Assembly: GCA_008632985.1 (NCBI GenBank)
Contig: QPGO01000085.1
Coordinates: forward strand, 186,001-250,000
Source: Psammoneis japonica
Lineage: Eukaryota
Length of the DNA: 64,000 bases
Reading direction: 5' to 3'
The notes beneath the pieces are model-generated. The model saw only the letters and a list, made by a program, of their open reading frames with translations. It was not told where the DNA came from and did not search any database. This document shows positions 1-32,330 of the stretch, one piece after another. The first letter of the stretch is position 1. Each line of letters starts with the position of its first letter. The translations under genes and the position numbers were made by a program.

Positions 1-1920
1 CTCTTGATCACAGACCAGTGGTTGCTTGGTGGTGGTGACAGTTGATTCAGTGGTTCTGAAGGGACAAGCCAGCACCAACTTCCCATGTGGGACAGTGCCG
101 GCTCATCTGGCTGGATGGAACTCAAGATCTGCAAAGGCAGAAATGAGTTGCACATGCAACTGCAATGCTCATGCAAGTGTTGACAAAACCACATGCTTCA
201 GAGTGGGGTCTTTGCCATTTCTCTGAGAGTTTGGCAACAATGGCATGCAGGGCAGCTTTTCTTCTTTTCTGATTGACCCGTCACATGACACAACCAAAGG
301 GGCAAAGTGGCATCGTTGGTCAAGGCAAGGCTTGAGGCACTTGCACTTTTTCTCCTTTTCATGGGCCTCTGGGACTTTTTCTGGATCTTTCAAGTGATGC
401 AATTTTGCATCCGTGTCTGCAACTTGGACATCAAACATGGCATCAGTCAATCTTTGTCACCAACCTCACACTGGAATGTCACCTCGGTCACCTGTCTTTT
501 GACTTGCGAAGGTTCTTGGAGACATTGGCTTGCCCACTCTTCTTGGTGTTGTCCACTGAGCTCCTTGAGTTGTGGATGGGGTTGGTTTTGAGGTTTGTCA
601 CATGCTGAAGAGGGCTTGGTGGATTTGCCAAAAAGATCAGCCAGCTCGTCTCTGACTTTGTCATGTCAAGAGATGACTGGGCCACTTTCTTGCACTCCAG
701 TGCATGTTGTGTAGAAAATTTGCATCCATGTCCATCACACTCCTGGGGCAGGTTGGGAGGTGTTTCAGCACAGTGCACATGAAGGGCATCATGGAATTCG
801 TTGCTCGACAGCTCCACTCCATTCACGATGGAAGGGTGGACAGACAGCCAAGCACCTGTTTGTGTGCTTCTTCGCGTGGCTCTGGCTTTCTTGTCCTGCA
901 GAGTGCTGAGGCCATTGCAAAGTTTGCACTTGTTTGCAACATTCTTGTGCTCCAGAATGGTTGACTTGACTTCTTGGAGGTTTCTTGGTGAACCGCCGAT
1001 TGGAACTGAGCGCTCACCAGGGTGCTCGATTCACAGTTGTCTGGGGCAGACTTTGTGGGATGAGGGATTGAAAGTCCAGAAAATTTGATGGGTGGGGCGG
1101 ACAGGGCAATCCTGGGATCATCTTGGTCAACGTGTCATTGAAGAGTGCCGGCAGGAAGTGACAAGTGATCGCTTCCTCACTCTCTGCAAACGAGTCACAC
1201 CGCAGTTCTTCGCCACACACTGGACGCATTGCCACTCATGTTGCAGAGATTTTTGAATCCCTGCATGCACCATCTGGGGACACTTTGCTGCAATGTTGGC
1301 TGGACCTTTGACTGCGCTTGTCCACTTCTCGGACTTTTCCTCCATTCATTTCCTGAGTTCTTTCTCCCCTCGCCGATGAAACCGCCACATGGCGTCTGCC
1401 TCTTCCAGTGGTGACAGAGAAGCCAAGGTCACCAAAGTGACACTTTGCTGCCTCCAAGTTGCAACTTGTGACTGCTGAGATGTTCTTCTCATTGTCGTCG
1501 GGGTGACATCTGACTTGTGAACCTGGGGGGCTCTCGCAAGCGCAGGAAGAATGCTCTGATTCTTTCAAACCTTCCTGCGGCAGCTGAGTTGTCAGCACAC
1601 CATGGTGTGAACATGCCAGGGAATTCTTCATTGAGTTGCTTGACTGGTGGCAGAAGTCCCAGTCCGCAAGCAACCATTGCAAGCAGGTCGCCCTGCGTGA
1701 CACCTTCCTTGCGAAGAGGAAGAATGCCGTGCCGAAGTGTCCCCTCGGATGACTGGGACACTCCAATGCTTGCAGCAGTCAAATGTGAATCGGGTGCCAG
1801 AGGGCCAGATGTGTCCAACGCTGCAGAGCATTGGGATCCCATTCTCCTCGTTGAAGCCGTTGAAGGTGTCGATGAAGAGGAATCCGAGTTCGTCTTCGAA
1901 TTTGTTCTGACACAAAGAAT
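1..1920 (-). mobile_element. Decayed, 5'-truncated non-LTR retrotransposon with RT and C-terminal restriction-like endonuclease (CRE/R2-like RLE group)
   Basis: Minus-strand fragments GFLFIDTFNGFNEEN, EGVTQGDLLAMVACGLGLLP and PWCADN (decayed WYADD) are RT motifs. HALECKK is a zinc-knuckle remnant. DAMFDVQVADTDAK..HEKEKKCKCLKPCLDQRCHFAPLVVSCDG is an RLE motif. Many frameshifts; Tyr replaced by Cys/His. Confidence 0.88.
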
Positions 1921-1921
1921 T

Positions 1922-2451
1922 GACACGGGATCCACGGGTGCACCCGGGAATTGCGGGATGAAAGGGGAAAGGGGCAAATGGGAATGTTGGGAAAGCAAGG
2001 GGCCATCATTTTACATTGAGGGACCCTTAGTCAGCCGAACACGCACATTTCTCATTTGACCATCATAGGTCCGTCTCATGGGGGGTGCCAAAACGTCGTG
2101 CTTTGCCGCGTCTCGAGGATTAATCGTTATATAATTTATTCAGCTATTGAGGTTATATAAAATTGAAAATTCACACATTTAAAGCACGACATTTTGACAC
2201 CCCCCGTAGACGACCTGTGATGGTCAGATGAGAAATGTGCGTGTTCGGCTCACTAAAGGGACCCTAAAGATACCACCATTTGCACTCAATGATCGATTTC
2301 GACCAAATGCACACTTTTTGCCATACCCTGGTGTTGCCTGGTGAATCCGTGGATGCGGTGGTAAAATAATAGCATGTCACTTTTCCACAATTCACATTTG
2401 CCCTCCCTTTCATCCCGCATTTCGCAGATTCCCCTGGTGCCTGTGCTTGTC
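1922..2451. mobile_element. Older MITE-like element with degenerate ~90 bp terminal inverted repeats, containing a nested MITE
   Basis: tgcgggatgaaaggg..gggcaaatg..attttac (~1952-2014) is the imperfect reverse complement of gtaaaat..catttgccctccctttcatcccgca (~2361-2419). Confidence 0.55.
2020..2264. mobile_element. PIF/Harbinger (Tourist)-like MITE
   Basis: ~85 bp near-perfect inverted repeats (2020-2104 and 2181-2264) around an AT-rich core. Ends are GGG...CCC. Flanks tga/taa are consistent with a TWA target duplication. Confidence 0.75.
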
Positions 2452-2609
2452 GGAATTGGCACGTTTCGCGCGCGATTAGTACGGCGTTTTCCTAGATGAC
2501 GCTTGCTGCTGTCACTTCTTTTTCAACTAACTGCCGCCCGCTTATTGGCTTGGATGGATGCACACACCACCAGAGATGAAACAGGATCATTTGATATTCG
2601 TCTTTTGCC

Positions 2610-3904
2610 ATGAAGACTAATAATGTAACAAATGCTCTCACTGTCGCTCTGTTTGCGTGGTTGCTTTTAACCATTTTGATTTTGTGGAACGTTTGGGTGA
2701 AGAAGGCGACGAGTGAGGTTGGTGAATCACCACTTCTTCACAGCCATGTTGTTTCACGAGCGCAGTGGTTTCGTCAACAAAAAAGCATCCAAGCCAGTTT
2801 CCGCCGATTGAAAAAGAAAAAATCAACATCGTTCCAAACAAATTTCATTAAAGAATGAAAGATCGTCCTGGATCACGGGAAACATGCACAACGTTTTCGC
2901 GGAGCTCAAACAGAAGAAGGCAGAGAACAACTTTTCAGCCAGAGACGTACCAGGAGGGATGAAAATATTCCCACAATATCTTTTCGGCCAGATATTGTAA
3001 GGGATTTGGAGAGCTTGAAGAATTTGGAGAGCTTGAAGAAATTGGAGAGCTTGAAGAACGACCCAAGGCGGACACTAGTTCATTTACACATTAGCAAGAG
3101 TGGTGGTACATCATTTGATGGGATTGGGGACAATCTCGCAAAAGACTCGGGACGAAACTACGTCGGTCATCGCCACTTTGATTGGTCTTATATTGACAAG
3201 CTATCGAATGTCACAAAGGTAGACGTAGTCATGTTCTTGCGACACCCTGTCCCTCGCGCAGAAAGTCATTTTTATTTCATAAAGAACCAGATATGGACAA
3301 GGCAGCTTCCAATGTACAACCAAACAATCGAAAGTACCTTCATGATCCAAAATCATTGTTACAATGCCGTGATGTGTGGCAGGATCAACAAGCGTCCATC
3401 ATGTGGCTGACAGGAAACCACATTGCCAAGTGGGCACATGGTACAGGACATATATCTCCCGAAGAAAGAGACGAAATGGAGAAGCGAGGGTTGGACTACG
3501 TCAAGATGTGCCATCTTGCAGCAAAGCGGTTGAATCAAACATTGTGGTTTGGTATCTTGGAGGACCGTGAACGCTCAATGGAGCTCTTACAACATGCCCT
3601 CAAGCTCGACTATAGGCCTGAGCTCCCAACAGCCAACACAGGGGGAAGAAAAAAGCAGGCTCAACCACTCTCCGAATGGTCCCGAAAAGCGTTCGAATCT
3701 CTCATGCCACAGGATATCTGGCTCTATAATTACGCCAAGACTTTGTTTGAGGCACGATGGGTTGAATACAAGACTGGAGTCTTTACGGCACCAGAGTTAC
3801 CACCCCTACCAGATTTGCCTTGCAGATCGACTCGCTTCGAGCTGAATTGCACATCGGGTCCACTGGCTGAGTCTGGACCCCTCCACTTTAAGCACATATT
3901 TTAG
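2610..3904 (+). CDS. Golgi-type (type II membrane) sulfotransferase, copy 1; frameshifted (pseudogene or assembly error)
   Basis: N-terminal TM helix; HLHISKSGGTS (5'-PSB motif) and FLRHPVPRAESHF (3'-PB motif). Paralogous to 11375-12523. Frame breaks near 2820 and 3335. Confidence 0.8.
3005..3059 (+). repeat. 18-bp tandem repeat x3 encoding LESLKN/K in the sulfotransferase stem
   Basis: ttggagagcttgaagaa occurs three times in tandem. Confidence 0.9.
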
Positions 3905-3984
3905 AATGGTAAATAATCGCTGGGCCTACTCAGTAAAGACTGCTGTTTTTTTTTTAATGAATAAGCTGTCATCTACAGTAGAGT

Positions 3985-4214
3985 TTACCTCAAGAAATGC
4001 CTGTTTGGCTGCTTGATGTTTTCTTTTATATTCAATTCCTCCAACTTCTTGTCCATTTCATCTGCAATCTCTGTGGGGTAAAGTTCCTTTGGAAGTGGTG
4101 TCTAATTGTCACCACCCTGTCCCTTTCTGCATTCCCCATGGATGCTTTCTTTGCATTTTGAAACCTGATCATGTCCAAGCAGCACCCATGATTAAAGAGA
4201 AAATGAGCATGTTC
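3985..4214 (-). pseudogene. 3' remnant of a paralog of the 14242-15441 methyltransferase, truncated by an insertion
   Basis: EHAHFLFNHGCCLDMIR aligns to EHAHLLADHGCYLDTVR; ttcctttggaagtggtgtct is shared. Homology stops abruptly after gagcatgttc (~4214). Confidence 0.85.
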
Positions 4215-7200
4215 AAAACACCTCTCTTTTCCCCATTCTTGATGCTCACTCTCATCTTCACTCATTCATCCCCACATTTGTCCACACTGGTGGTGTGCCA
4301 TCCATCATTTTTGCTGAGAGCAAATTTCCTTTGGAGGCCTGCCATCTCTTGGCTTGGTTCATCTCCACTTTTGACTGTGCATGTTGATCGGCAACACAAA
4401 AGGCCACAATGACATGGCTTGTCACTGCAACTCCCATTCCAGCAACATTTCCCAGATGAAGAGGGACTGTGACACTCCCCCCAGCATTTTAGCAACAATC
4501 CCTTGTTTGCTTGCAATTTGGTGGAACAAGAGAACATCCAGGGCATGGTGGAGGCTTCCATCGTGGCTGTGGAGGAAAGGCATCATGGCAAGGTGACTCT
4601 GCTGCTTGTGAACGGTGCAAGGATGTTTCCCAGCACTTGGCTCATCCCATCTTTTGGGATGTTCCTCATGGCAGAGGAAAGCATGGCATTTGCGGCATGC
4701 TCCCATGGGAGCTGTTGCATGCCTTGCACTTTGGTCTTTACAAGCACTCACTTCATGCATTCTTCAACTTGTGTCAAGTCCCAGAAGACATGCTGTCATG
4801 GTGCCACAACGTCATGTTGGTGACTGGGAAGCCACAATGGACAAATGACCATCTGTTGCCTTCAAGGAGCTCCCTGAGTTGTTTGATGAAGCTGAGTTCA
4901 AGAGACACTTCAGAGTTGCAACACATGCGTCCTGAAGACAAAGTGATTGAAAGATGCCAAGAACTCCATTTAAGAATGGAGCCACATGCCAGACTCGTCT
5001 TTCTGGCCAAGAGCATCCAGGTTTGTTGCTGGCAACACTTGCTGCAATGAAAGGCATGCTGTCAAAAGAAGACAACAGCCTTGAGCCACTGGAGAGTCAC
5101 TTTGCCCACCCAATGCTCATGTCATTCGGATTGGATGCAGCACTGTCCATGTCCTCTGACATGGAAAGCTTTCTCACTTGGCTTCAGAAAGGCCTTGTCA
5201 AGCATCTCCAATTGTTTCAATCCACAGTCGGCCCATTCAGAGAGTGCCGTTCTTGCTCCGGACTTTGCATGTCCAAGTTCCACAGCCTTTTTCACTTTCT
5301 TTTTTATGTGCATCAGTGTGGCAATGCCAACAATTTTTTTGGTGGATTCTGTGAAGCTCTTCTCAAGATGCTTCTTGAGCAACCTGCCAAAAACACATCA
5401 TTGACAGGACAGGCTGGACCTTGACATGTGATGAATTGTTGCTGCAAGGACCTTGTGGTCAGGGAATCAGAGAAACATTTGCTCAAGGCAGGTTGGCTGT
5501 GTGGACAAGAGGAAAAGGCTCTGCTGTTGCTTCATCATCTAATTGCACATGCACGGACCCCGCAACAGGATTCAAACCTCACAAATCTGTGTTGACAGCT
5601 GCCTGCATTGCAGTGGCAGGTCAAGTCAACAGATCATGGTCTGTAAAACATGGCAACAAGCAGCTGGAGACACTGTCCTCCTGTCCATTTGTTCCAGGTC
5701 ATTGTGGCAATGAATGGGCGGCTGCATTGCTGGATCATGCAGATCAGTGCAAAGCTTTCCCATTGACCCCATCAATTTTCATTTTGGATGTGATGCTCCA
5801 GCTCCTCCAATGACAAACATGACATCCTGAGATGTCACCCAAACTTTCACTCCCATCTGTGGGAACAAAGGAGTTGGCATGCTGGGCCATGGTCAGCTGG
5901 GACAACAACGAAATGAGCTGTTCCGTTGCTGCACGTGTGTTGTTGTGGGCAACCTTTGAAAACAAAGCAACCGGCCACAAATCAATGGTTTGTGCCATCC
6001 AATCTCTTTGAAGCTTCAAACCATCAAAAGATTCTTTGCTTTCCTTTTTTTGTTGGTGATGAAATGGAGCCCGATGTCTGAGTTGTTGATGCTTCTGATG
6101 TTTTGTCTGCTGCCTTTGTCCTCCCATCAACAAGAAGGTCCCCACAAGACCACTTTCCTGACAATTTGGAGGACACCACCCATTTTGTTGTGATTCTGCT
6201 AAGAACTGACTGGTGCCAGATGACTGCGTCATCAACAGAGGAACATTTGGACCCTGAAAACTTGGGTGAGTGCTGGCAAATGCTTGAAACATGCAACCAA
6301 ACATTGTCCCCTGTCAAATTTTAACCAACAAGCCATCACAGTTAATTGGTTGCATCAGTGGAGTCCAATGACAGTGATCCCATGGACAACAATGATTCGA
6401 TGCTGTCTGTGGGGGGCTCTGTTGACAGCAAGTCAAGCTCAGAAAATGTTTGTCCATGATCAATGTTTGTTTTTGGCGAGCTGATGAAAGAGAGGTCAAG
6501 AGCTGTCTTTTGCTTGGGAAAAGCACCGCTGTGCTGTTCTCCACTGTCATCGTCAAATGTTCATTTCTCCTTTGCAACCGTTCTTTTTGGTTGACTAGAA
6601 AGTCTGCCTTCAACCCCACTGACAAGGATGGGGACACAACCAAACACTCATTCACCATGTCATGCAAAGTCTGCAGCAAGGGGACTGTGTTCTTTCCCCA
6701 AAAAGCATCGCAGCTTGGGTGTGGCATGCATCCCAGGCAGTTTGCTTTCAGCTCTGATGTGATGCACTGAACCAACTCACATTTTCCAATGCTTTTCTCT
6801 GACAAGGAATTGCCAAGCAACAACACATTCAATGGTTTGCAGCATTGCAAAAAAGCTTTTGTGTGTCCCTTCCATGCAACTTGAACAATGTCCCTGTGTT
6901 GTTTCACACCAAAGGCCACTTTGGGTGTTGTGCATTTTCTTCCAGTCTGTTGGTTGCACCCAACTTTTGTGTTTCCAATGCCACTGTGCAGTGGAAATGG
7001 TGAAACATCAGCCAGCACAATGCCCCTGTTCTTGGCTTGGTCGAGCATGCACACTCTTTGTTTTGTTGTTTTTTCCTTGCGTGAATCAAGTGTGTTGTTC
7101 TTTGGGCCACACATCATTGTTTGTTTGATGGCAGAGAATGCAGAGAAAAGAGTTGAAAAAGAGGGGAAAAGTGTTTGCATCACCTGCATCACCGTGATTG

Positions 7201-8203
7201 GAAACACAGACCCCGTGATGTTTCTCAATGATGCTTTGCAGGACTGTGGGAAACAAGGCACTGCCGGCCTTGGGTGGCAGAATGTGTTCGATTTGTGTTC
7301 GGAGGTGGGAAGCAAAGGCATTTTGTTCTTGACCTTCCCATGAAGTTGAGGGCCAACGGGCCAACCTTCTTCTGAAACTTTTGACAAACTTCAGGCTTGT
7401 GGAATTCATTGTCAGACCTGTCCTTTTCATTTTTCGGATTTTTTGGGAAAAGATGTTCCCAAGCCATCAAGGCAAAGGGACATTTGGAGTTTGCGCCGGC
7501 ATCCAGGAGTGAATGGTGATTCATGGTGTTGCCAATCCCTTGTTTGGACAGAAAACCCAGAGAGAATAGAAGAGAACTGCCCACCTTTGAGTTGCCCATC
7601 TTCTTTGCAAGGTTGGTCTCCAAATTTGTCATTTTGCTGGCATGAAGGGTCTGTTTCTGAGCTTTCTGGAGAGAGGATGTGGTCTTGTTGGCAGTTTCTT
7701 GCACATCTTTTTGTTTTGGTTTTTGCAGAAGCCATGCATCAACCAGCAAAACAAAAGCCACATTCTGCAATCTTTGCCAGACATTTGGTTTGGGTTCATG
7801 CCACAAATGGTGCGATGCTTGGAGGCTCCAAGCAGCTCGGCAGTCTTGTGGGAAGGGACTTCATTGTGCTGCTGGAGAAATTCAATGTCCTCTTTTTGAA
7901 TTGGAGAGCAACAGTTCTCAGACACATCATTGGAGGAGTTGGCTTCTTCGTTGGTGGAGGCAGCAGCTGCGGCAGCAGCTGCAGGGTTGTTGGCCGGCGG
8001 AGCAGCTGTGCAGATGGAGAGCCTTGAGGATGCCAAGGGCCAGTCCTGGAGCCTTGCCTGGGTGGCCTGTTGGCAGCAGCTTGGCCTGGTGCTTGAGCAC
8101 CTCCACTGCGACCTCTGCCACAGCCACCTGTGCCGCTGGTGTTGCTGGCATTGTTGCGGCCAGCCACTGGCGGGCTCACCTTCTTCCTTTTTTTGGGCGG
8201 CAT
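4215..8203 (-). pseudogene. Large decayed coding region of unknown origin: N-terminal NLS-like motif and possible UDG-superfamily-like domain
   Basis: Starts MPPKKRKKV at 8203. The 6314-7387 frame contains RGIVLADVSPFPL, KPLNVLLLG and MPHPS. TpA is nearly absent throughout. Confidence 0.4.
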
Positions 8204-9479
8204 GGTCAACAAGAGCACAAAATGGAAAAAAAGGATTGAGTGAAGTCCTGGAAATGGGAGTGCAAAGGCAAAAATGTGAAATTTCCAATCTCAACAAGAA
8301 CACTTTAATGTGATGAAATGAAGCTTGTTGAACAAATTTGAGACATCAATGGCCACATGATTCATCGAGGTTGTTTGAAATCATTCAAACCATCGCATCA
8401 CAATGCAAAGATTGAAAATTTTAAAACCAAATGTTGTTGCTAAAAAAGAGATGCTGGTGGGAATCAACAGATGGTGAGGTTTACAGTTTGGCCAAAAACC
8501 AAAAACACGAATTGTCCCTCCCCCTCAAGACACAGAAAATGCAAACTCAAGGCGCAAGCAATGAGAGAGGCAGTGACAGGCAGCAGCATTGCGGCTGGGA
8601 CAGGATCAAGCACAGGACACAAGGTGAGAAAGACAAAACAAGTGGTGAGTGCATGGAGATGGGGTGCACAATCCAAGCAACTGACACTTGCACACATCTT
8701 TGCACACAGAAATCCAGACAAGGGACGTGGGCAGCAACGGAAGATGGAGCAGCAATGGAAGACGGGGCAGCGGGGATGGGCAACAAGCAAAACCCACTTT
8801 TTGGTGTTTGCATGGTTCAGGCAACACAGAGGGGGGCACTGACAAGCCTTTTTTGTCACATCTGCTGCAGACCCAGCGTTTTTCTTGGCAGGCAGAGGGG
8901 CCGCCATGATGTGACCATGAGAGAGAGGGAGGCTGGCCACCACTGTTTTGTGCTGGTGTGGGGAGCCTCAAAATTTTCCAAACAGAGCAAAGATGGTGTT
9001 CTTCATTTTGCAATTTTCCAAGACCAGGTGGCATGATCACACGTCGATCTCAGTGTTGACACTGCAGTCACATTGAGTCCTGTGTGAGATGCTGCTGGAT
9101 GGAAATCTCTTCGAGGGGTGTCCGTCAGCCAATGGACCATGGAGATTTGAAAAAAATGGTTGCACTTGGCCTGTCCTTCCATGCGTTCACAAAACTTGTG
9201 TGGGATTCTACACACGCAACATTTCGTGGGGCGATGCTGAAATGGCAGTTGCGCCAATCAGGCCTCATTCAAATTTGTGTGAGAGGCCAACACAAATGGC
9301 ACTTTCACGATGATGATGCGGCGGCGGCGTCTTCAGCACGTTCCCGCAGCCATGCCACAGCAAATGCTTCTAGATGTGACAATGTGTTGGAAAGTTTGAA
9401 AGAGATCTGTCTCATTGGTGGCGTCTCTGACGGTGTTGTTTTCAACATAAATTTGTGGACTGGACCACACATTGTGGCA

Positions 9480-10720
9480 GGGCTGAATGTGGCAGCACTG
9501 GTGGCGGCAGGAGCCTTTTGCTGCTTTTGCACTGGGGGTGGCTGGAGCCTGTGCACCACTGTCCTTTTTTATCTGGTGGCAGTTGGCACCCCTGCATGAT
9601 GCTGGTGCTGGTGGTGGTTGGAGCTTTTTTGCTGTTGGCCAGTGGTTGCAGTGGGATCCTGTGTGTCGCTGCCACTGCAGCACTGGTGGCGGTGGGATCC
9701 TGTGTGCTGCTGGCACTGGAGGTGGTTGGAGCCTTTTGCTGCTAGAACTGGTGACAGCAGCAGCCTGTGTGCTGCTGCTGTAGCACTGGTGGCGGTGTGA
9801 GCCTGTGTCCGGCGGTTGGAGCCTGTGCACTGGCAGCCATCGAGGCGTTTGGAGCCTTGTCATGTGATGTCGGTGGGTGCCCCTGCATGCTGTTGGGACT
9901 GGTGGTGGTTGGAGCTTTTTTGCTGCTAGCCAGTGGTTACGGTGGGAGCCTGTGTGTCAAGGCCAGCACTGGTGGCGGTGTGATCCTGTGCAGCACTGGC
10001 ACTGCAGGCGGTTGGAGCCTTTTGCTGCAAGCACTGGCGGGCAGCAGCAGCCTGTGTGCTGCTGCTGTAGCACTGGTGGTGGTGTGAGCCTGAATCCTGT
10101 ATGTTTGCTGGCACCAGCGGCGGTTGGAGCCTGTGTGCAACCATCTTTTTTTATCTGGTGGCGGTTGGCACCCCCGTGTGATGCTGGCACTGGTGGCAGT
10201 GGGAGGCTGCATCCTGCACAGCTGCCAGCACTGGCGGCAGTTGGAGCCTGTGCACCACTGTCCTTTCTATCTGGTGGCAGTGGGTGCCCCTGTATGATGC
10301 TGGCACTGGTGGCAGTGGGAGGCTGCACCCTGCACAGCTGCTGGCGCTTGCGGCGGTTGGAGCCTGTGCACCACTGTCCTTGTCATCTGGTGGCGGTGGG
10401 TGCCACTGGCATTCGAGGCGGTTGGATTCTTTTTGTCTGGTGTTGATGGTGCCCCTGCATGCTTCTGGCAGTGGTGGTGATTGGAGGTGTTTTGCTGCCA
10501 GCAGTGGTGGCAGTGGGAGCCTGTGTGCTGCTGGCAGTGGTGGCGGTGGGAGCCTGTGCACAACTGCTGGCAGTGGTGACGGTGGGCGCCTGTGTGCTGG
10601 TGGCACTGGAGGCGGTTGGAGCCTTTTGCTGTGGGTGCTGGTGGCAGTGGGAGCCTGTGTACTGCTAGCACTGGCAGTGGTTGGAGCCCATGTAACACAC
10701 CAACCGTCGGCGGCGGGATC
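9480..10720 (-). repeat. Degenerate ~33-36 bp coding-like tandem array (Pro-rich HRLPPPPVPAA or APTATSAS frames)
   Basis: Many copies of gcactggtggcggttggagcctgtg variants, plus a higher-order ~100-bp unit at ~10120-10410. Confidence 0.8.
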
Positions 10721-11374
10721 TTGACCGGTGGCGACTCGTGGAGAGATTGCTTGGGGGTTTCAATGCAATCACATGTTTAAAAACCAGTGCTTTAGATTAT
10801 TAACGTAGATCTTAATGATGGTGATCTCTTGTCTCTATATTCTTTTGATGATGTGGTGCAATAGTGTCTTCTTTTTAGCATCGCGGCCGATGATTCACCA
10901 CACTAGCTACTTGCACCACGTCTGATTTTCATCTCGGATGCATGGCGACGGACGGACAGTGCGACCAATTTTTCCGAATCTCCATAGTCCATTCGAAAAG
11001 TCATTGAAGTGATTGACACTTTCCGATCTTTGGACAAATACCACATGCATGGATGATGATTCGTCACGAGGTTTTTTCTCTCACACATTTCCCACACGAC
11101 ACAGCATTTGAACAACGTTTGGCATCGGTTTCGATTCTGTTCTTTTTGCCGAGCAACTTAAGCAGTGCGCAAGGGCTCCAGGTGCTGCATCGAGGGATAA
11201 CATCCTCCTCGCTCTTCAGTGCAAGGACCAGTCGAGTCTACGCCGGGTCGCGTTATTTTCATATTATTTTCATATGCCGTGAGGTGGCCCCTTTTTCAAC
11301 TGCCCCCACCTGCTTTTGCTCGATGCGCACAAGAAAGACACGGCAACGTAGAAATAAAGTCATTGGATAGTTTG

Positions 11375-12523
11375 ATGCCTTTTATGATGAAGACCAATCA
11401 TCTAACAGCTGCTCTCACTGTCGCCTTATCGGTGTGGTTGCTTTTCACCGTATCGTGGCAGGTTCGGGTGGGGAAGGCGAGTAATATTGGGGTTGGCAGA
11501 GCATCACTGCACGGGCATGTTGTTCCACGAGCACAGTGGCGTAGTCAACAAAGAGACATTCGAGTCAACTATACACCGCAAACGGACAAAACATCGTTTC
11601 CGACAAACGCTCTTCAAGGACGAAACGTCGTTGTCAGGCATCTTGGAAGAGTTGTAAAACGCAGGAACAAAACTACTGTCAACGATCCAAGGCGTGTACT
11701 GGTTCATTTGCATATTGCTAAGAGCGGCGGTACATCGTTGGATGATATTGGGGAAAAACTCGCACATGACTCCGGACGTCGCTATTTTGGAAATTACCAC
11801 TTTGATTGGTCCCGTATTGATGAGATGCCAAACGTCACAAACGTAGACGTTGTCATGTTGTTACGACACCCCGTTTCTCGCGCCGAAAGCCATTTTCATT
11901 ACATTAAAGACCAGGAATGGACAAGGCAGCTTCGAATGTACAACCAAACAATTGAAGAGTATCTTCATGATCCCGAATCATTGTTACAGTGCCTTGATGT
12001 GTGGCAGGATCAACAAGCATCCATTATGTGGTTAACTGGAAACCATATTGCAAGCTGGGTAAGTAGGTCTATATCTCCCAAAGAAAGAGATAAAAGGGAA
12101 CAGCGGGGGTTTGACCACGTCAAGATGTGCCACCTTGCAGCGAAGCGATTAAATCAAACACTGTGGTTTGGTATCTTGGAGGACAGTGAACGCTCTATGG
12201 AACTCTTGCAACATGCTCTCAAGCTCAACTATAGACCACAGCTCCCAAAATCCAATGTTGGGATGAAAAAACCAAAGATTCAGAAGATCTCTGAATGGTC
12301 CAGAAAAGCGCTCGAGTCTCTCATGCCTCAGGATATTTGGCTATACAATTATGCCAAGGCATTGTTTGAGGCGCGATGGACGGAGTACAAGACGGGAGTC
12401 TTTGTAGAACCAGAGTTACCACCCCTGCCAGACTTGCCATGCAGATCGAATCGCTTCGAGCTAAATTGCACAGCGGGTCCACTAGCTGAATCTGGACCCC
12501 TATACTTTCAACGCGTACATTAG
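11375..12523 (+). CDS. Golgi-type sulfotransferase, copy 2 (intact)
   Basis: Uninterrupted ORF; TM anchor LTVALSVWLLFTV; HLHIAKSGGTS; LLRHPVSRAESHF; WFGILED; DIWLYNYA. Confidence 0.88.
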   Translation: MPFMMKTNHLTAALTVALSVWLLFTVSWQVRVGKASNIGVGRASLHGHVVPRAQWRSQQRDIRVNYTPQTDKTSFPTNALQGRNVVVRHLGRVVKRRNKTTVNDPRRVLVHLHIAKSGGTSLDDIGEKLAHDSGRRYFGNYHFDWSRIDEMPNVTNVDVVMLLRHPVSRAESHFHYIKDQEWTRQLRMYNQTIEEYLHDPESLLQCLDVWQDQQASIMWLTGNHIASWVSRSISPKERDKREQRGFDHVKMCHLAAKRLNQTLWFGILEDSERSMELLQHALKLNYRPQLPKSNVGMKKPKIQKISEWSRKALESLMPQDIWLYNYAKALFEARWTEYKTGVFVEPELPPLPDLPCRSNRFELNCTAGPLAESGPLYFQRVH

Positions 12524-12627
12524 AATGGGAAAGATTGCTGTCTAGCTAAGACTACCGTTCCTTTGTCTATAAATATCATATGTCATCGATCTAGACTTCA
12601 CCTCAGAAGAGTCTGTTTGGCTGCGTT

Positions 12628-12849
12628 CATCTCCAAAATTCCTTTTACAAGTTATCCCTGTGTCCAGAGAGGACTCGTAGCAAGTGTTCCAATCCGTGCT
12701 TCTTTCTTGTGGGCTCACTGGCGTCGATACATAACATGATCTGAAGGCATCTCCAAAATTCCTTTTACAAGTTATCCTTGTGTCCAGAGAGGACTCGTAG
12801 CAAGTGTTCCAATCCGTGCTCCTTTTGTTTAGAAATAACATGATCTGAC
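12628..12849. repeat. Direct tandem duplication with 120-bp period
   Basis: catctccaaaattccttttacaagttatcc..ccaatccgtgct at 12628 and 12748. Confidence 0.92.
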
Positions 12850-13084
12850 CAGGGAGATTTTGGCGCGACACCCCGTTATTCCGGCCGCCGCTGCCTGCTC
12901 GCGGCGCCGTCCAGTCTGGCCATCAACCGTTGATGTGTTCGGTGCGTTTTTTTGTCGTTTTGCCGAGGACCAAAAAGGTTTCAACCAAGCTACTGTAAGC
13001 CTTAAAAGGCAACGGGTCGACGCTATTATACCACGCATGCTAATGATAGGCTTGCACTTGATAGTCACGTACTATGCGTACAAA

Positions 13085-14179
13085 ATGATGCGACATGTTA
13101 CTGCTTTTCGCCTCAAGGCCAACAATGTAACAACAGCTCTCGCAGTCGCCTTGTCGGCGTGGTTTCTTTTCACCGCATCATTGTATGTTTGGGTGGAGAG
13201 GGCGAGTAGCCTTGGGGATGGGAGATCATCGCCGTACGGCTATGTTGTTTCACGAGCGCAGCAGTGGCGTCGCCAAAAAAGAAATGTTCGAGCCAGTTAC
13301 AGTGGACCGCAAACTGACAAGCCATTGCCGTTTAAAGGACAAAGGGTCGTCGGGGATCGTTCATTAGTTCATTTACACATAGGCAAGAGCGGTGGTTCAT
13401 CATTAGATAGAATTGGTTTCAAACTTGCACAAGACTCGGGACGTCGCTATGTGGGTTATCGCCACTTTGATTGGTCCTACATTGACAAGATATCAAACGT
13501 CACGAACGTAGACGTTGTCATGTTCTTGCGACACCCCGTGGCTCGTGCCGAAAGTCACTTTGATTTCGCCAAAGGTGACGACTGGACAAGGAAGCTTCGA
13601 ATGTTCAACCAAACAATCGAAGAGTGCCTTCATGATCCAGAATCGTTGTTGCAATGCCGTGATGTGTGGCAGGATCAACAAGCATCCATCATGTGGTTAA
13701 CTGGAAACCACATCGCCAGCTGGGCAGGCGCACCTCCCGAAGAAAGAAGAAAGGGAACAGCGGGGGCTTGACTACGTCAGATGTGCCACCTTGCGGCAAA
13801 GCGATTAAATGAAACATTTTGGTTTGGCATATTGGAGGACCTTGAACGTTCCATGGAACTCTTACAACATGCCCTCAAGCTCGACTATAGACCTCAGCTC
13901 CCAAAATCCAATGTTGGGATGAAAAACCCAAAGGCTCCGCCGCTCTCCGAATGGTCCAGAAAAGCGCTCGAGTCTCTCATGCCTCAGGATATCTGGCTCT
14001 ATAATTACGCCAAGACATTGTTTGAGGCACGATGGGTTGAATACAAGACTGGAGTCTTTACGGAACCAGAGTTACCACCCCTACCAGACTTGCCATGCAG
14101 ATCGACTCGCTTCGAGCTAAATTGCACGTCGGGTCCTCTAGCTGAGTCTGGGCCCCTCTATTTTCATCTAGTAACTTAG
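13085..14179 (+). CDS. Golgi-type sulfotransferase, copy 3; frame break near 13745-13780
   Basis: Same motifs (HLHIGKSGGSS, FLRHPVARAESHF). The C-terminal ORF 13781-14179 is near-identical to copies 1 and 2. Confidence 0.82.
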
Positions 14180-14241
14180 TATCTGCTACTGCGTAAAGAC
14201 TGCCGGCGTCGTTCTTTATGAATGTCACCTGCGTCTATAGT

Positions 14242-15441
14242 TTACCTCATTTGACGTCTGCCTGCTGGCTTGATGCTTTTCTTAATCATTTCCTCCCATT
14301 TCTTGTCCATATCATCTGTCATCTGTAAAGGGTAAAATTCCTTTGGAAGTGGTGTCTCGTTCTCGCCACCATTTCCTGTTCCGCATTCCTTATTGATAAT
14401 TTCTCTTCGTTCGCGCGTCCTTACTGTATCCAAGTAGCACCCATGATCTGCAAGCAAATGAGCATGTTCCGGGAGAGCAGCAACGACCGGATTGATGAAT
14501 ACTATCATGTTTAGCCAAACATCTGCCCCACGACGAGAGAATCAAACATCCAGTGAGGCGCAATTAGCGGCATGAGGTATCACTCAAAAACGTCGGATTA
14601 GAATACTTACGTTGCGCATTGTACGCTTCCCCGTTCGGGCAGTCAAGTTTCGTTTCGTTTCTTCCATCGCAGTCCGATGAATCTTTTGGGTGAGTTCGTC
14701 TGAGAAACGAAAGCCATACATTTCGAACTTGGTTATCCACCACTCTCTGTCATGCACTTCGACATGATGCCAACCACCCCAATTGCTGTGCGTAACAAAG
14801 AGCAAGGCGGCCTTCCGAAAGGCTGGCAAATAATTTTTATGAAAATTCCTTCCAACGTGTTCCAGAAACTCCACAGACCAAACAGCATCGACGGTTCTAG
14901 GAGGCCACCAGGGGCCTCTTGAAAAATCATGCTCAGTCACAACGTCCTTTACAATGTTCTGCTCAACCGCATCGTGACTCCCTTCTACACATAATGTATC
15001 AACTCCATGCATTTTAAACCACGACGTGGATATGCCGCGACCGCAACCCACGTCGAGGAGTGACTTGACACCAAGCTTGGAAACCATGTACTTCCACGTG
15101 TGTGGAGAAACGCCAAATCCGTCGTACTCTGTAAATCCTCCCAAATGCGCCTTGTCACCGGCTCCGCCGTATATGTTTCGGTTGATCTTTTTGGCTTGGG
15201 CTTTTGTGATTTGAACCGACGGCAGTGCTATTGCGGGGCCTTTTTCATAGTCTAGAGAGTACAAATTTTTGTTGTTTTGATTTACAACCTCCTCGGGATA
15301 GGTAGGTATTGCCATGCTTGTATCGATGGAAACTCGATTGTACTGATATGTCAGCTGGAACACCAGCACATTGGAACACAAAAGCAGCAATAACCACATG
15401 ACACCGCTGCTGCGTCCCGCAACACCCAAAGACGACTTCAT
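14242..15441 (-). CDS. Class I SAM-dependent methyltransferase with N-terminal membrane anchor; intron ~14523-14610
   Basis: SLLDVGCGRG motif I and WSVEFLEHV. The gtaagt donor at 14610 and cag acceptor at 14523 rebuild YNAQHVWLNM. One frameshift near 14640. Confidence 0.82.
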
Positions 15442-29531: not shown

Positions 29532-29546
29532 GGCTTTGTATCAACA

Positions 29547-29816
29547 AAGAAGGCAATTTGCCCGATTTGCTAAGCTTCATTTGAGAGAGCAGAAAGTTGT
29601 CACACGAGTTGATCACTTCAAAGCATGGTAACTCTCTATGGTAGCAGGCAGTTCAGCCAATGAGGTAACTCCACGAAAAATTCAAAAGTACTGGGGCTCT
29701 AGTAAGTAGAGTAGCTCTACTAGCTAGAGTACCACCGAGCTAGCATTCGAACCCTAGGAGGGAACAGGGAGTTTTTTGAGATTCGGAAATAGCAACTCTC
29801 TACTAGCTAGAGCTCT
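29547..29816. repeat. Upstream region of the alpha-kinase gene; unmutated copy A of a ~270-bp direct repeat
   Basis: Aligns with 31684-31955; gttgtcacacgagttgatcacttcaaagcatgg is identical in both. Confidence 0.9.
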
Positions 29817-29879
29817 ATCTTACAAGTAGCTAAGGTAGGAGCTACCAGTTCGGATATTTATCCAACTATTCGATAAATA

Positions 29880-31660: not shown

Positions 31661-31683
31661 TTGTGATGCGACACCCATGAACG

Positions 31684-31955
31684 AAGAAGGCGATTTGCCC
31701 GAGCTTGCAAACTTCATCAGACAGCAGAATGTTGTCACACGAGTTGATCACTTCAAAGCATGGCAACTCTCTGCTTGCAGTGGCAAGCAATTCTCAGCCA
31801 ATGAGGCAGCTCCAAAAAAATTCAAAAGCACTGGGTCTGGCAAGCAGAGTGGCTTTGCCAGCTCTGGCTGGAGCACCGCCGAGCTGGCATTTGAAGCTCA
31901 GAGGAACAGAGTTTTTTGAGATTTGAAACAGCAACTCTCCGCTAGCCAGAGCTCT
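31684..31955. repeat. Hypermutated copy B of the alpha-kinase upstream region
   Basis: Same sequence as 29547-29816 with nearly every TA changed to TG or CA. Confidence 0.9.
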
Positions 31956-32330
31956 CTCTCTCTCTCTCTCCCTCTCTAGTAGAGGGTTACTCTAGAGCTA
32001 GAGTAGAGAGTGGCAGAGAGAGATGAACACGGATGGACGACTCTCGAATCAATCTTGAATGATCTTGAATTTTTTGGCGCAGTCGTACAAAAAACGCATG
32101 GAATCAGCAAAATTTTTAATTCTATTCCTCATGTTCATATGTCAAAAATGTCAACGCGGATAATGATAATATTCACACATTTATGTTATGATCGAAAAAT
32201 TTAGTATCAGATTTCCTGTTTACTATTTTTCCCTCCAATGAGGTGCAAGCCACAAGACCGAAACCGCTTACGTGTAACCAATAACCTCCAGAAGTCCTAT
32301 TCGACCATTATTCGACCGGGATAGTAGACA

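Follow-up and report, generated by a model that had tools for sequence, protein, structure and literature searches.

The window, that is, the whole stretch of 64,000 nucleotides analysed here, alternates between normal DNA and blocks that are nearly without TA and CG steps and enriched in TG and CA. Near its left end lies a unit consisting of a sulfotransferase-like gene, a short spacer and the tail of a methyltransferase gene. The unit has three occurrences, here called A, U and B (Table 1), and the convergent gene order and the spacer are preserved in all of them, so the duplications were DNA events for which no RNA stage is needed. This agrees with the preliminary description, according to which the fragment never passed through a transposon RNA stage: the unit was tandem-duplicated as DNA with its spacer and neighbour retained. 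Contigs assembled from a public DNA run contain both A and U; the run possibly derives from the source sample and these contigs are therefore not independent.

The methyltransferase tail in unit A is a dead fragment with an in-frame stop and a frame shift, and it is 73% identical (157/215) to the reference exon in unit B. The reference gene has 984 homologues, and those with names are mostly from diatoms. Its intron is 88 bases long, and the assembly contains one 1-base frame shift near 14645-14670, so that its earlier designation as intact holds only if this shift is an assembly error. The frame shifts at 13037-14179 (sulfotransferase of unit B) and at 14645-14670 may both have arisen in assembly, as did the one at 3332.

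The sulfotransferase-like genes of A and U are under purifying selection (pN 0.018, pS 0.126, p=1e-8) and encode proteins that are 96% alike. The contigs from the DNA run have one more base at the frame shift at 3332 and a C at 2856, and with these the reading frame of the gene in A is open. A Pfam scan gave no match; Sulfotransfer_2 clusters are similar to the paralog at 11375, with a cosine of 0.95-0.96. The segment 3905-3994, mostly spacer, has 9 TA against 9.2 expected and 1 CG against 2.8. One contig with a depth of 34 covers 3862-4024 with 13 other letters and two gaps; it fits neither A nor U exactly and might represent another allele of U or one more copy.

Homology to unit B stops at 4214, where an insertion had initially been placed, but the multi-copy repeat starts at 4340. 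Scored against a profile built from 99 members of the methyltransferase family, the piece in between did not reach significance. A putative extension of methyltransferase homology beyond 4214, suggested by a weak in-frame likeness in U, did not score against this profile either: the best real frame had -2.1 bits, and control windows reached up to 3.4. The repeat begins at a breakpoint inside the sequence of its family, the other copies continuing upstream with a common sequence; in 24 frames it gave no significant Pfam family and no homologue, and its atlas matches were below 0.85. Beyond 4335 the copies A and U have different neighbours. At least one of these neighbours arrived later, which makes it unsafe to take the 4340 junction as the origin of the mutations. 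On the U side, the shared piece is followed by about 540 bases (L012:8930-9498) that are TA- and CG-poor, have no other match in the genome and run up to the terminus of an inverted repeat; in one contig, 109 of the letters there are replaced by 114 different ones.

Table 1. Features of the locus and related sequences. Positions refer to the window unless a contig is given.
Feature	Position	Strand	Basis and remarks
End of TA-depleted block between copies U and A	1..2011		Segmentation
Unit A	2545-4335		Sulfotransferase-like gene, spacer, methyltransferase tail
Sulfotransferase-like gene of unit A, likely live, normal TA and CG	2610..3904	+	pN/pS against U
Spacer between convergent genes, TA kept, CG nearly gone	3905..3984		Counts on 3905-3994
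Dead 3' remnant of SAM-dependent methyltransferase paralog, copy A, last 76 codons	3985..4214	-	Protein match, E=4e-11
Probable edge of TA conversion, copy A	4030..4136		Context-weighted likelihood; placing the edge after 4029, 4079 or 4103 differs by at most 1 log unit
TA-depleted block containing inner part of fragment	4104..10659		Two-state segmentation on TA
Piece in place of remaining methyltransferase, no TA, no CG	4215..4335		2 genome matches, A and U only
Decayed multi-copy repeat DNA	4340..8760		38 matches including itself; TA 4, CG 11 in first kb
Element with terminal inverted repeats across right edge of block	9127..10993		Converted in inner 1.5 kb, unconverted in outer 380 bp
Two more sulfotransferase-like paralogs, unconverted	11375-12523 and 13037-14179 (11375..14179)	+	Self-comparison, ORFs, own-genome search
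Unit B	13349-14469		Same composition as unit A
Reference methyltransferase, unit B	14242..15441	-	Pfam Methyltransf_23/11; exon 2 at 14242-14522; intron 14523-14610
Unit U	G000:C85:183205-184927		Just upstream of window; 87.6% identical to A
Second host-type pseudogene (L153)	G000:C1:631625-632835		36/43 TA converted, none kept, along 1.2 kb that ends at a block edge

Loss of TA and CG steps in the fragment

Of the three changes cited in the preliminary description, two concern TA steps (TA>TG at 4172 and TA>CA at 4180, the latter turning Tyr into Cys within the GCY motif) and one a CG step (CG>TG at 4128); all three are present, and the distal gggtaaa retains its TA (4079) in copy A as described. 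Conversions were counted after alignment of 3995-4213 of copy A to the unit B reference, B being an old paralog and not the ancestor. Copy A has kept two of nine TA steps (five became TG or CA and two something else) and none of eight CG steps (five and three, respectively), while 117 of 194 other dinucleotides are kept; the combined TA and CG loss differs from these with p=1e-4 (Fisher). The sites are few (9 TA, 8 CG), and if TA is taken by itself, the effect in A is of borderline significance (retention p=0.03, transitions p=0.056). Copy U has kept 0/9 TA and 0/7 CG (p=1e-6), and here TA alone is clear (p=4e-4 for retention, p=0.006 for transitions). Conversion of TA amounts to 5/9 in A and 7/9 in U, and CG transitions to 8/16 compared with 9/77 (p=0.001). 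Conversions outnumber reverse changes by 10:0 in A and 11:0 in U, and both strands are affected, as copy A has three TG and two CA products.

Ordinary pseudogene divergence together with CpG decay, the TA loss being due to chance or to a genome-wide bias masked by selection, is a very improbable explanation. CG decay alone is expected in CG-methylated transposon-rich regions (PMC9998398), and the TA transitions in A alone give p=0.056. Against it stands a count that is free of any reference: there are 5 TA in 341 bases of A and 0 in 335 of U where about 14 are expected at host density (p=0.006 and p=1e-6), and for U the explanation has already failed. Normal DNA, including non-coding twins, keeps its TA (rho 0.59 against 0.07 in the blocks). 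Counts are symmetric in 83 control pairs whose two copies both lie in normal DNA (TA 487:445, CG 618:647). The sulfotransferase-like gene beside the fragment has no significant asymmetry either (TA 7:5, CG 11:5), and 12 of its 21 silently changeable TA steps are kept, similar to its paralogs. The directional loss in A and U, the symmetric controls and the TA deficit thus set the changes apart, in a context-aware test, from the ordinary paralog divergence that had been named as the competing reading. The CG part of the loss would fit methyl-cytosine decay, and the TA part is the unusual half.

All nine sites converted in both A and U, among them the three cited changes, have the same resolution (p=0.002), which suggests that the shared conversions likely predate the duplication that gave A and U. 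Gene conversion between A and U could alternatively have produced this identity.

The context of the changes was taken from 35 twin pairs with at least 82% identity, out of 70 listed, which are not independent since several come from one family. A>G after T was found at 614 of 1503 sites (0.41), compared with 0.025-0.053 after other bases, and C>T before A at 0.026. The rate of change at the A of TA depends on the next base (C 0.58, T 0.48, G 0.27, A 0.19). In young twins the loss of TA is far ahead of that of CG, one 96% pair having ten TA changes and no CG change. Taken together, the data demonstrate a TpA-specific A:T>G:C process acting on both strands, in DNA and depending on position.

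Polymerase eta mutates WA motifs, and this signature is what speaks for error-prone repair synthesis at such motifs; on the other side, AA>AG is found at 0.035, near background, against 0.41 for TA. A-to-I RNA editing followed by reverse transcription has in its favour that ADAR prefers a 5' U, as stated in a preprint (10.64898/2026.01.13.699255). Against the RNA route, the spacer and the convergent neighbour still accompany the fragment in each of the three units, conversion affects both strands, and in one element one inverted repeat is converted and the other is not. Because this host-gene DNA was copied as DNA, RNA editing is excluded as the route, and we give hardly any credence to this pair of explanations as a whole.

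The genome contains nine matches to PF00383. One of them (G000:C38:7368-7679) has a HAE/PCxxC pattern, which we take to be TadA-like. Deaminase matches are also found in 12 of 14 control genomes; they represent housekeeping genes and give no evidence for a mutator enzyme. The same dCMP-deaminase-like gene appears with an identical score on two contigs (L189 and L190; G000:C41 and C317), likely a haplotype duplication in the assembly. For a preference of such TadA-derived enzymes as editors for YAC, the literature checked offered no statement, and it is not used as evidence.

Edges of the TA-depleted blocks

Two-state TA segmentation over 1.31 Mb (350 kb of C85 and 960 kb of C1; 1.4% of the assembly) gave 81 blocks that make up 40% of the segmented DNA. 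Relative to expectation, TA stands at 0.07 within the blocks and at 0.59 outside them (782 kb), and CG at 0.40 and 0.99, respectively. The left end of the block that reaches into the fragment lies more than 200 bases past the multi-copy repeat, in host-derived DNA, and live genes face both edges of the block. The inner part of the fragment lies just inside this block, which is likely why its TA and CG were changed mostly to TG and CA.

The right edge of the same block is defined by an element with inverted repeats, likely a non-autonomous DNA transposon, for which there is an unconverted 92% identical twin at G000:C1:795412-797280. Of the 83 TA sites up to 10611, 73 are converted, compared with 3 of the 18 that follow (p=6e-9). 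The switch takes place within 62 bp, about 380 bp inside the element, so that a single element has one inverted repeat converted and the other not. The second host-type pseudogene has an open-frame twin at C1:732725-733916; the gene also gives a faint RdRP-associated PH-like match (E=0.04), below the cut-off. Around the blocks, the median distance from edge to long ORF is 482 bp at 3' ends and 390 bp at 5' ends, a crude measure that does not discriminate.

At the fragment itself, a gradient from an adjacent insertion had been proposed. The order of kept and converted sites within the fragment gives p=0.095 with seven informative sites, and four TA steps, at 4027, 4029, 4103 and 4193, had been overlooked, two of which (4103 and 4193) are nearer to the junction than 4079. 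A gradient inside the fragment is not established by the five surviving TA steps (uniformity test, p=0.066). The kept fraction varies with context (CTAA 52%, TTAA 41%, GTAA 13%, TTAT 8%, ATAT 1%), these values being biased low because the blocks were defined on TA. The survivors 4103 (CTAA) and 4193 (TTAA) have the two most resistant contexts and can therefore be inside the block, 4027 and 4029 have sensitive contexts (TTAT and ATAT) and belong outside, and 4079 is ambiguous.

A reference-free step fit places the edge in copy A at about 4105. In copy U the context-weighted likelihood places it at the equivalent of 3975-4026 of A, and the probable position of the edge thus differs between the sister copies. 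Reference-free fits favour a step in both A and U, with the limitation that a step with a free centre overfits. Ramps were simulated for five edge-spanning pairs of the eight fitted, with 150 simulations per scale; two pairs sharing one subject without an edge and one pair of 367 bp that fits a ramp better were dropped. Logistic ramps of 50 and 100 bp reach the observed advantage of the step in 41% and 16% of the simulations, and a ramp of 200 bp is rejected (0/150). Two of the eight fitted pairs are clearly better described by a 100-bp ramp than by a step. A step appears to fit as well as or better than a ramp, and a short ramp of at most about 450 bp would also be compatible, but not a long one; from these fits, a fairly sharp edge inside the fragment is likely, instead of a fade-out. 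Of 15 TA sites free of selection, 4 have changed on the U branch, all towards the block side (p=0.009) and two of them in the live gene itself. Two such changes are found on the A branch, both distant from the block.

A short-range leak, in which the mutator acts on an adjacent element and spills outward, falling over a few hundred bases as in RIP, is an unlikely explanation that has some observations on its side. With the spacer included, converted sites are nearer to the block than kept sites (p=0.004 in A, 0.008 in U), the changes on the U branch point the same way, ramp scales of up to 100 bp survive simulation, and the piece from 4215 could be an old insertion already present in the ancestor of A and U. 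Rank tests, on the other hand, cannot separate a ramp from a step, and the 200-bp ramp fails. The right edge lies inside an element and not at its end, an upstream duplicated gene pair keeps TA and CG to 64 and 97 bp from block edges, and three of nine inverted-repeat ends near normal DNA have normal TA right to the terminus (two of these share one duplicated flank). The other six ends have 0.6-1.5 kb of depleted flank, which is repeat DNA in two cases and not classed in four. None of 18 loci in the flank test of the inverted-repeat family was an isolated insertion in host DNA. Since the conversions common to A and U are likely older than the duplication and the neighbours differ beyond 4335, a leak that fades with distance from the adjacent insertion is unsupported. 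What stands of the proposal that a mutator leaks into host DNA is that host-derived DNA, duplicated as DNA, has changed beyond paralog divergence.

That the fragment was targeted as a duplicate by homology sensing, as in RIP and irrespective of its neighbours, is largely refuted and has very little probability left. Three tandem copies do exist, but the reference exon, the sulfotransferase genes of A and U and the 92% twin of the element at 9127-10993 are all untouched. A low-TA island of 1 kb without repeats (G000:C85:313969-314999) was considered as a directly targeted duplicate and rejected; it has an open frame and its tyrosines are kept.

Some further sequences show similar patterns. At 1-2011 of the window, motifs suggest what is presumably a non-LTR retrotransposon remnant; it has no Pfam match, and TA is absent while CG recovers towards 2000. 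Direct repeats at 29540-29820 and 31677-31959 differ by 18 TA conversions in the right copy and none in reverse (CG 1:3). About 24-31 kb before the window on G000:C85, two 279-bp direct repeats with 96% identity (L010:284-562 and L010:6886-7164) flank an element with long ORFs; 10 of their 11 differences are TA conversions in one repeat, and there is no CG change. A foldback family of about 490 bp with long inverted arms (L042:2970-3466 and L043-L059) has all 18 fetched copies in or at the rim of TA-poor blocks.

Proposed history and comparison with known systems

The reading we prefer, with a probability of roughly two in three, sees in the fragment the dead tail of a host gene, lying just inside a silent block filled with repeats, where a DNA-level TpA mutator works up to a fairly sharp edge near the 3' end of the adjoining live gene. 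The sulfotransferase-methyltransferase unit would first have been duplicated (pS 0.38 to B), after which the methyltransferase copy would have been cut at 4214 and become silent. TA would then have been lost by A:T>G:C changes, and CG probably by methyl-cytosine decay. A further duplication would have given A and U (pS 0.13), and the edge in U would have shifted some 50-130 bp outward. A silent chromatin state would define the block, transcription of the live neighbour would set its edge, and the enzyme would be a DNA adenine deaminase of the TadA/ADAT kind. The wider proposal, somewhat short of an even chance, is that diatoms might possess a DNA adenine mutator guided by chromatin, which would rewrite silent DNA of every kind, dead host genes among it, as far as a movable boundary that the nearest live gene maintains.

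With three copies of the unit to compare, the direction and relative timing of the changes can be read, as well as a position for the edge, and this position yields predictions for a transcript end and a chromatin boundary. Converted pseudogenes, in which Tyr becomes Cys or His and TAA and TAG stops are erased, will mislead gene calling and dating.

Literature searches gave nothing relevant on a TpA process in diatoms or stramenopiles, and one report of a natural targeted A-to-G DNA mutator, on viral inserts in an unrelated alga (10.64898/2026.01.13.699255). The same signature in host-gene DNA copied as DNA widens the target from foreign to silent DNA. According to this preprint (Mettrop et al.), Bigelowiella natans has TpA hypermutation of integrated NCLDV and virophage DNA, at about 1000-fold over background in some mutation-accumulation lines only, and an adenine deaminase with an ADAT2/TadA-like candidate is proposed. 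The two cases are alike in the change of TpA to TpG and CpA on both strands of nuclear DNA, in its confinement to regions and in long-term TpA-poor clusters rich in CpA and TpG. They differ in that the target here is a host methyltransferase remnant within a block of repeat DNA and not viral or foreign DNA, that about 40% of 1.31 Mb is affected, that CG is also lost and that edges could be mapped with twins. The rate was measured in B. natans, whereas the present case offers a footprint alone, in a diatom-like stramenopile.

In diatoms, DNMT5-dependent CG methylation of transposon-rich chromatin is described in PMC9998398. It would explain the loss of CG to TG and CA and is a plausible mark for silent blocks, but it cannot remove TpA.

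Leakage of RIP into single-copy DNA of ascomycetes, up to about 1 kb and with a gradient, is reported in PMC2973834 and PMC9453070, and there too a genome-defence mutator reaches host DNA beside dead elements. RIP makes TpA from CpA, whereas here TpA is removed and C>T before A is rare. It is triggered by duplication and hits both copies, whereas here twins at 82-96% identity remain unconverted. The gradient of RIP also contrasts with the present edge, where a step fits at least as well. If the proposed mutator exists, it could finish off gene duplicates and erode live neighbours, and would be the mirror image of RIP leakage.
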